A stretch of 64,000 nucleotides of DNA from Escherichia coli. GTDB lineage: Bacteria; Pseudomonadota; Gammaproteobacteria; Enterobacterales; Enterobacteriaceae. How positions within the stretch are numbered: position 1 is the first letter of the stretch; each line of letters opens with the position of its first letter. The translations under genes and the position numbers were made by a program. The notes beneath the pieces were generated by a model. That model did not search any database. It worked only from the letters and a program-made list of their open reading frames with translations, and had not been told where the DNA came from. This document shows, piece by piece, positions 62,834 through 62,946 of this stretch. The DNA is taken from NCBI RefSeq assembly GCF_024502345.1, contig NZ_JALDNN010000001.1. One strand, written 5' to 3'.

Positions 62834-62860
62834 GAACTTTTCCGCAGGGCATCAGTCTTA
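62834..62860 (+). promoter_or_regulatory. Sigma-E-type promoter of rybB
   Basis: -35 gaactt (62834-62839), 15-nt spacer, -10 gtctta (62855-62860), 6 nt to the RNA 5' end; matches the sigma-E consensus GGAACTT-N15/16-TCTNA as I recall it. Confidence 0.7.
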
Positions 62861-62866
62861 ATTAGT

Positions 62867-62946
62867 GCCACTGCTTTTCTTTGATGTCCCCATTTTGTGG
62901 AGCCCATCAACCCCGCCATTTCGGTTCAAGGTTGATGGGTTTTTTG
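62867..62946 (+). ncRNA. rybB: RybB small RNA (sigma-E-dependent, Hfq-binding; represses outer-membrane protein mRNAs)
   Basis: gccactgcttttctttgatgtccccattttgtggagcccatcaaccccgccatttcggttcaaggttgatgggtttttt matches RybB from memory; ends in a terminator hairpin plus U-run; lies between ybjL and rcdA as in K-12. Confidence 0.88.

Follow-up and report, generated by a model that had tools for sequence, protein, structure and literature searches.

In a 64,000-nucleotide stretch of Escherichia coli DNA (contig NZ_JALDNN010000001.1 of assembly GCF_024502345.1), referred to below as the window, the convergent genes ybjL and rcdA leave between them a gap of 174 nt. The gene ybjL occupies 61105-62790 on the plus strand as an open reading frame of 561 aa, annotated as ybjL in E. 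coli K-12 and in strain E2865, and rcdA occupies 62965-63501 on the minus strand, annotated in K-12 and E2865, its coordinates having been mapped by alignment with K-12. Within the gap the gene for the small RNA RybB, 79 nt in length, runs on the plus strand from 62867 to 62945, from the 5' end GCCACUGC to a 3' run of six U residues, as placed by mapping of the K-12 gene and by an Rfam match. It starts 76 nt 3' of ybjL, on the same strand, and is convergent with rcdA, whose stop codon is separated from the RybB 3' end by 19 nt. The gap contains the interval 62834-62946, for which a RybB gene with a sigma-E-type promoter and an intrinsic terminator had been proposed from the letters of the DNA (the original prediction).

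The whole window was searched against Rfam 15, and the RybB family (RF00110) matched at 62870-62948 on the plus strand over its full length (model positions 1-79 of 79) with 105.3 bits and E = 1.3e-20, the gathering score of the family being 40 bits; in a local scan the E value was 1.6e-22. A permissive Rfam scan of 62500-63300 on both strands returned no family besides RybB at E <= 1, MicA included. The match is offset by 3 nt from the annotated gene because the Rfam model omits the first three nucleotides.

In K-12 MG1655, rybB (b4417, 'small regulatory RNA RybB') is annotated at 887979-888057 on the minus strand between rcdA (b0846) and ybjL (b0847), and this gene maps to 62867-62945 (+) of the window with 79/79 bases identical. 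The alignment of the window with K-12 has 195 of 196 bases identical, the sole mismatch being position 62957 (T here, C in K-12), 12 nt past the RybB 3' end; identity is thus unbroken over -87 to +90 around the transcript start, and the promoter, the RNA and the terminator are the same base for base. The expectation of an ~80-nt RybB RNA in the ybjL-rcdA gap, for which a match to the Rfam covariance model and alignment to K-12 rybB had been named as checks, was therefore confirmed by both: the covariance-model match is decisive, and every base of the K-12 gene is present. The element had been described as known rather than novel, which its identity with K-12 rybB bears out. The rybB gene found here is already known and adds nothing on RybB or on the sigma-E envelope stress response.

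Of 5426 complete E. coli genomes, 5418 have the 191-bp stretch 62780-62970, which spans the gap, at >=80% coverage, with ybjL and rcdA annotated over it. Matches to plasmid records were mostly to megabase- or chromosome-sized records and otherwise to small records without annotation under the match; they were not taken as evidence of a mobile rybB.

Other noncoding elements were observed elsewhere in the window. On the minus strand at 22608-22695, beside a tRNA (22477-22561), lies what is left of a type I-F CRISPR array, two repeats and one spacer. One repeat, at 22668-22695, is a perfect 28-nt copy (RF01317, 50.1 bits); the other, 60 nt away at 22608-22635, agrees with it over 20 nt before degenerating, and the two enclose a spacer of 32 nt. 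Of 5426 E. coli genomes, 4880 contain 80% or more of 22560-22720, and in some records 'RtT sRNA' or tRNA-Ser is annotated there. A full-length match to STnc130 (RF02084, 139.1 bits against a threshold of 55) at 7350-7484 (+) marks an enterobacterial sRNA candidate with a terminator hairpin, and 50116-50196 (-) matches naRNA4/CssrE (RF02564, 78.5 bits against 59.5), a family of REP-element-derived nucleoid-associated RNAs.

Orthologous loci were sought with a conserved 25-mer (RybB nt 3-27) in one genome per species. The 60 nt upstream of the transcript start were aligned from 116 Enterobacterales loci, the genera among them including Escherichia, Salmonella, Klebsiella, Enterobacter, Serratia, Yersinia, Xenorhabdus, Providencia and Sodalis, and the RNA itself was aligned from 117 sequences. 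In 83 of 120 orthologous loci, rybB is preceded on the same strand by a ybjL homologue whose end lies 68-106 nt before the rybB start; 29 loci, those of Xenorhabdus, Providencia and Sodalis included, are without a ybjL homologue within 400 nt upstream, yet keep the promoter boxes and the RNA. An rcdA homologue adjoins rybB in only 14 of the 107 loci that have enough downstream sequence. One record in the sample, 'Chryseobacterium sp. 18061' (CACSKA010000002.1), has a rybB locus which, over the 158 nt compared, departs from its counterpart in 'Citrobacter sp. 18056' at only a few bases, and its ybjL homologue is 93% identical to the ybjL of the window. As RybB is not otherwise seen outside Enterobacterales, a wrong label or contamination is the probable explanation of this record.

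Upstream of the transcript start, a -35 element AGAACTTTT at 62833-62841 (+) matches 8 of 9 positions of the published sigma-E consensus GGAACTTTT, and a -10 element GTCTTA at 62855-62860 (+) matches 4 of 6 positions of its partner GTCAAA (PMC1804206). The spacing, AGAACTT, 16 nt, TCTTA, 6 nt and then G+1 at 62867, fits the layout of sigma-E promoters (GGAACTT, 16 nt, a TCAAA-like box, about 6 nt). Across the 116 orthologues two blocks are conserved, aGAACTTT at -34 to -27 and aGTC..AA at -13 to -6. Each column of GAACTTT (-33 to -27) is identical in 112-116 of the 116 loci, the G, T and C at -12 to -10 and the A at -7 are invariant (116/116), and the two positions at which the -10 element departs from the consensus are the variable columns. 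The segments -26 to -14 and -44 to -36 are weakly conserved (<=0.9 bits, mostly <0.3). Two conserved boxes held apart by a spacer that is fixed in length and free in sequence are, as read from this alignment, the signature of a promoter and not of a coding or structural element.

Scans for the consensus carried no weight by themselves. For GAACTT-N16-TCNNA the window has a single match where 0.47 would be expected, and one or more matches turn up in 37 of 100 shuffles; the full sigma-E consensus with 3 mismatches allowed gave 44 matches in the window against 55 expected. With counts at chance level, the consensus scan was dropped as stand-alone evidence, and the promoter is regarded as real because it stands at exactly the right distance from the transcript start and is conserved in 116 orthologues. 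Further upstream, an A-then-T tract at 62814-62822 (+), corresponding to -53 to -45, carries 0.66-1.36 bits per column in the same orthologues. Distal subsites made of an A-tract followed by a T-tract strengthen sigma-E promoters, rybB being among the promoters modelled (PMC3326320), and we infer that the tract at 62814-62822 is a UP-element-like contact site for the alpha subunit of RNA polymerase. NsrR showed no robust in vitro binding to the rybB promoter (PMC12249550).

The 3' part of the gene forms a Rho-independent terminator (62901-62945, +) consisting of a 12-bp stem, a small inner hairpin and a U6 tail. The stem pairs 62901-62912 with 62930-62941 (RNA nt 35-46 with 64-75), and the T6 run lies at 62940-62945. 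The minimum free energy of the 80-nt transcript is -25.2 kcal/mol, compared with -16.2 +/- 2.8 for shuffles (z = -3.17). In the 117-sequence alignment the stem is paired in 98.8% of cells, and compensatory, two-sided changes are found in 6 of its 12 pairs (for example A-U to G-C, C-G to U-A and U-A to A-U). Its covariation score of 0.281 was reached in 0 of 500 shuffles (0.148 +/- 0.006), and control stems with slid partners scored <=0.093. A generic terminator scanner did not detect the rybB hairpin because the loop exceeds the 8-nt limit of that scanner. The terminator is likely also to be an Hfq-binding module, Hfq binding of RybB being known from the literature (PMC4102768).

The predicted promoter and intrinsic terminator thus both held, the former through its spacing to the transcript start and its conservation (the pattern alone being at chance), the latter through the stem, the U6 tail, the fold energy and the compensatory pairs. 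As for the interval 62834-62946, its start is right, 62834 being the G of the GAACTT -35 hexamer, while its end falls one base past the annotated 3' end at 62945. The gene had also been called invisible to the ORF track, and indeed only short, unconserved ORFs of 43-45 aa lie across it; moreover, one RefSeq/PGAP record with a 100% identical 191-bp stretch is without a rybB feature, whereas the K-12 record has one. The case has a calibration value in that a noncoding gene with its promoter and terminator was recognised from raw sequence to within one base, and it shows rybB as a gene missed by ORF tracks and omitted from at least one RefSeq/PGAP record.

On the minus strand the terminator palindrome folds as well, but the hairpin is then followed by CUCCACAAAAUGG. 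Because this sequence stands in the place of a U run, the rybB terminator is unidirectional. No obvious U-tract terminator belonging to rcdA was seen in 62946-62964 or on the minus strand of 62860-62964, and a weak sigma-70-like site at 62984-62955 (-) is at chance level (1 found, 0.5 expected). Transcripts of rcdA might run antisense across rybB, so that convergent transcription or RNA-RNA pairing would couple RcdA and RybB levels in Escherichia and close relatives; we consider this improbable, and any such coupling would be lineage-specific because rcdA adjoins rybB in so few loci.

The same end of the gene is an integration site. At 62940-62961, the last nucleotides of rybB plus ~16 nt beyond them form an attachment site of P2-like (Peduoviridae/Felsduovirus) prophages. 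Two prophage ends, the right one of Klebsiella phage 4LV2017 (annotated attR) and a junction in E. coli 1008S13, follow the window to about 62961 and then diverge into ogr/gpD/tail genes. A published account of the E. coli pan-genome has the site as hotspot #29 and finds it occupied in 109 genomes (PMC10121019); in Klebsiella it is described as the island Kpn38RybB (PMC4048246). In the window the attachment site is empty and rcdA comes directly after.

At the 5' end, nt 1-27 of RybB are invariant across the 117 sequences, for nt 3-27 partly by design, as these were the search pattern. A helix drawn in this region by the minimum-free-energy fold (nt 2-5 paired to 31-34) was discarded, since 40 of 100 distinct sequences disrupt its A4-U32 pair and make no compensating change. 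With this helix unsupported, a single-stranded state is the best reading of the invariant 5' end. Its first 16 nt, GCCACUGCUUUUCUUU (62867-62882, +), constitute the seed, which is complementary to omp mRNAs. Duplexes of the 20-nt RybB 5' end were computed with K-12 mRNA regions from -140 to +60. Perfect complements of RybB nt 1-8 (GCCACUGC) were found at -48 to -41 of ompC (best duplex -19.3 kcal/mol) and at +25 to +32 of ompA (-19.2 kcal/mol), and a perfect complement of nt 1-7 at +14 to +20 of ompW (-16.3 kcal/mol). The energies are only moderately distinctive, dinucleotide-shuffled seeds being equally good in 10/500 cases for ompC, 9/500 for ompA and 51/500 for ompW; the feature that stands out is that the three duplexes are anchored on the same terminal 7-8 nt of RybB. 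Within the window, complements of the seed occur at chance (2 eight-mers, including the antisense of rybB itself, against ~2 expected, and 8 seven-mers against ~8), and no in-window targets are proposed.

Could the conserved stretch encode a small protein instead of acting as an RNA? Short ORFs are present, namely those of 43 aa at 62881-63012 (+), 45 aa at 62782-62919 (-) and 44 aa at 62718-62852 (-) in the ORF list, and an ATG at RNA nt 18 is invariant. However, the frame opened by this ATG is 4 aa long in 46 of 121 sequences (120 loci plus the window), 8 aa in 15 and 17-172 aa in most others, and it is shifted by loop indels of 1-3 nt. The start of the antisense ORF falls in the variable loop, and across loci the maximum antisense ORF length is anywhere between 16 and 64 aa. 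Conservation is strongest at nt 1-27 and lacks a third-position pattern there, and the changes in the stem are compensatory at the level of the RNA. The overlapping ORFs being unconserved, the small-ORF reading was rejected, and we regard it as exceedingly unlikely. It has also to be considered whether the element is nothing other than the 3' UTR and terminator of ybjL, with any small RNA being processed from the ybjL mRNA. The arrangement invites this thought, as rybB follows ybjL on the same strand at a short distance, the linkage is kept in the 83 loci mentioned above, and no other terminator was found between the two genes. Against it, the footprint of two boxes, 16 unconserved nt apart, is correctly spaced from the mapped 5' end, the boxes and the RNA persist in the 29 loci without a nearby ybjL homologue, and a Salmonella promoter fusion was active and rpoE-dependent (PMC1804206), all of which makes this origin very unlikely. 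Transcripts of ybjL may end at the rybB hairpin too, and this would not conflict with an independently transcribed RybB.

A last alternative concerns only the polymerase, with RybB of this strain being made by the housekeeping sigma-70 rather than by sigma-E. It can draw on the fact that the sigma-E pattern match by itself is indistinguishable from chance, but no sigma-70-like site was found on the plus strand in a scan of 62600-63200, conservation falls on precisely the bases that make up the sigma-E consensus, and the promoter is the same as in K-12, where rybB serves as a sigma-E reporter and model promoter (PMC3326320; PMC12249550). In Salmonella, deletion of rpoE reduced the activity of the rybB promoter to background (PMC1804206). 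We give transcription by sigma-70 almost no credence. Membership of rybB in the sigma-E regulon is a matter of two sources, the promoter layout being present here and sigma-E dependence and stress induction being carried over by analogy from the Salmonella and K-12 literature. Overall, no result contradicted the main reading, and we put at about 97% the probability that 62867-62945 is the canonical E. coli rybB, a sigma-E-driven, Hfq-bound small RNA that represses omp genes.

The identity and boundaries of the gene, the promoter footprint, the covariation of the terminator, the noncoding status and the seed complementarity were computed in the present work; sigma-E dependence, Hfq binding, target decay and the feedback loop are taken from the literature on the identical K-12 gene and on the Salmonella gene. 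Put together, canonical RybB would act as follows. Unfolded outer-membrane proteins would lead to the release of sigma-E from its anti-sigma factor RseA, and RNA polymerase carrying sigma-E would bind the -35 and -10 elements, probably aided by the upstream A/T tract. A transcript of 79 nt would be made, from the G at 62867 to 62945, where the hairpin and U6 tail would end it, and Hfq would bind this RNA. The single-stranded 5' end would then pair with ompC, ompA, ompW and other porin mRNAs and cause their decay, so that less new outer-membrane protein would be made, a feedback that would lower sigma-E activity. Deletion of rybB was reported to raise omp mRNAs and to induce the envelope stress response (PMC1804206). 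MicA and RybB, both Hfq-bound, jointly target 31 mRNAs, and their promoters rank second and third in the sigma-E regulon (PMC4102768).

Among known systems, RybB of K-12 (b4417) and of Salmonella (RF00110) has the same neighbours, ybjL and rcdA, in the same strand arrangement, and the gene described here is identical to that of K-12. MicA (SraD) shares with RybB the type of promoter, with GGAACTTTT and GTCAAA boxes, and like RybB is induced by envelope stress, binds Hfq, destroys omp mRNAs and feeds back on sigma-E (PMC1804206; PMC4102768); unlike RybB, it lies at the luxS-gshA locus and has ompA as its main target, and its sequence is unrelated. MicL, the third sigma-E-dependent small RNA, acts in a comparable protective feedback loop (PMC4102768), but differs from RybB in being made inside the cutC coding sequence and processed, in targeting lpp and in having a narrower phylogenetic range.
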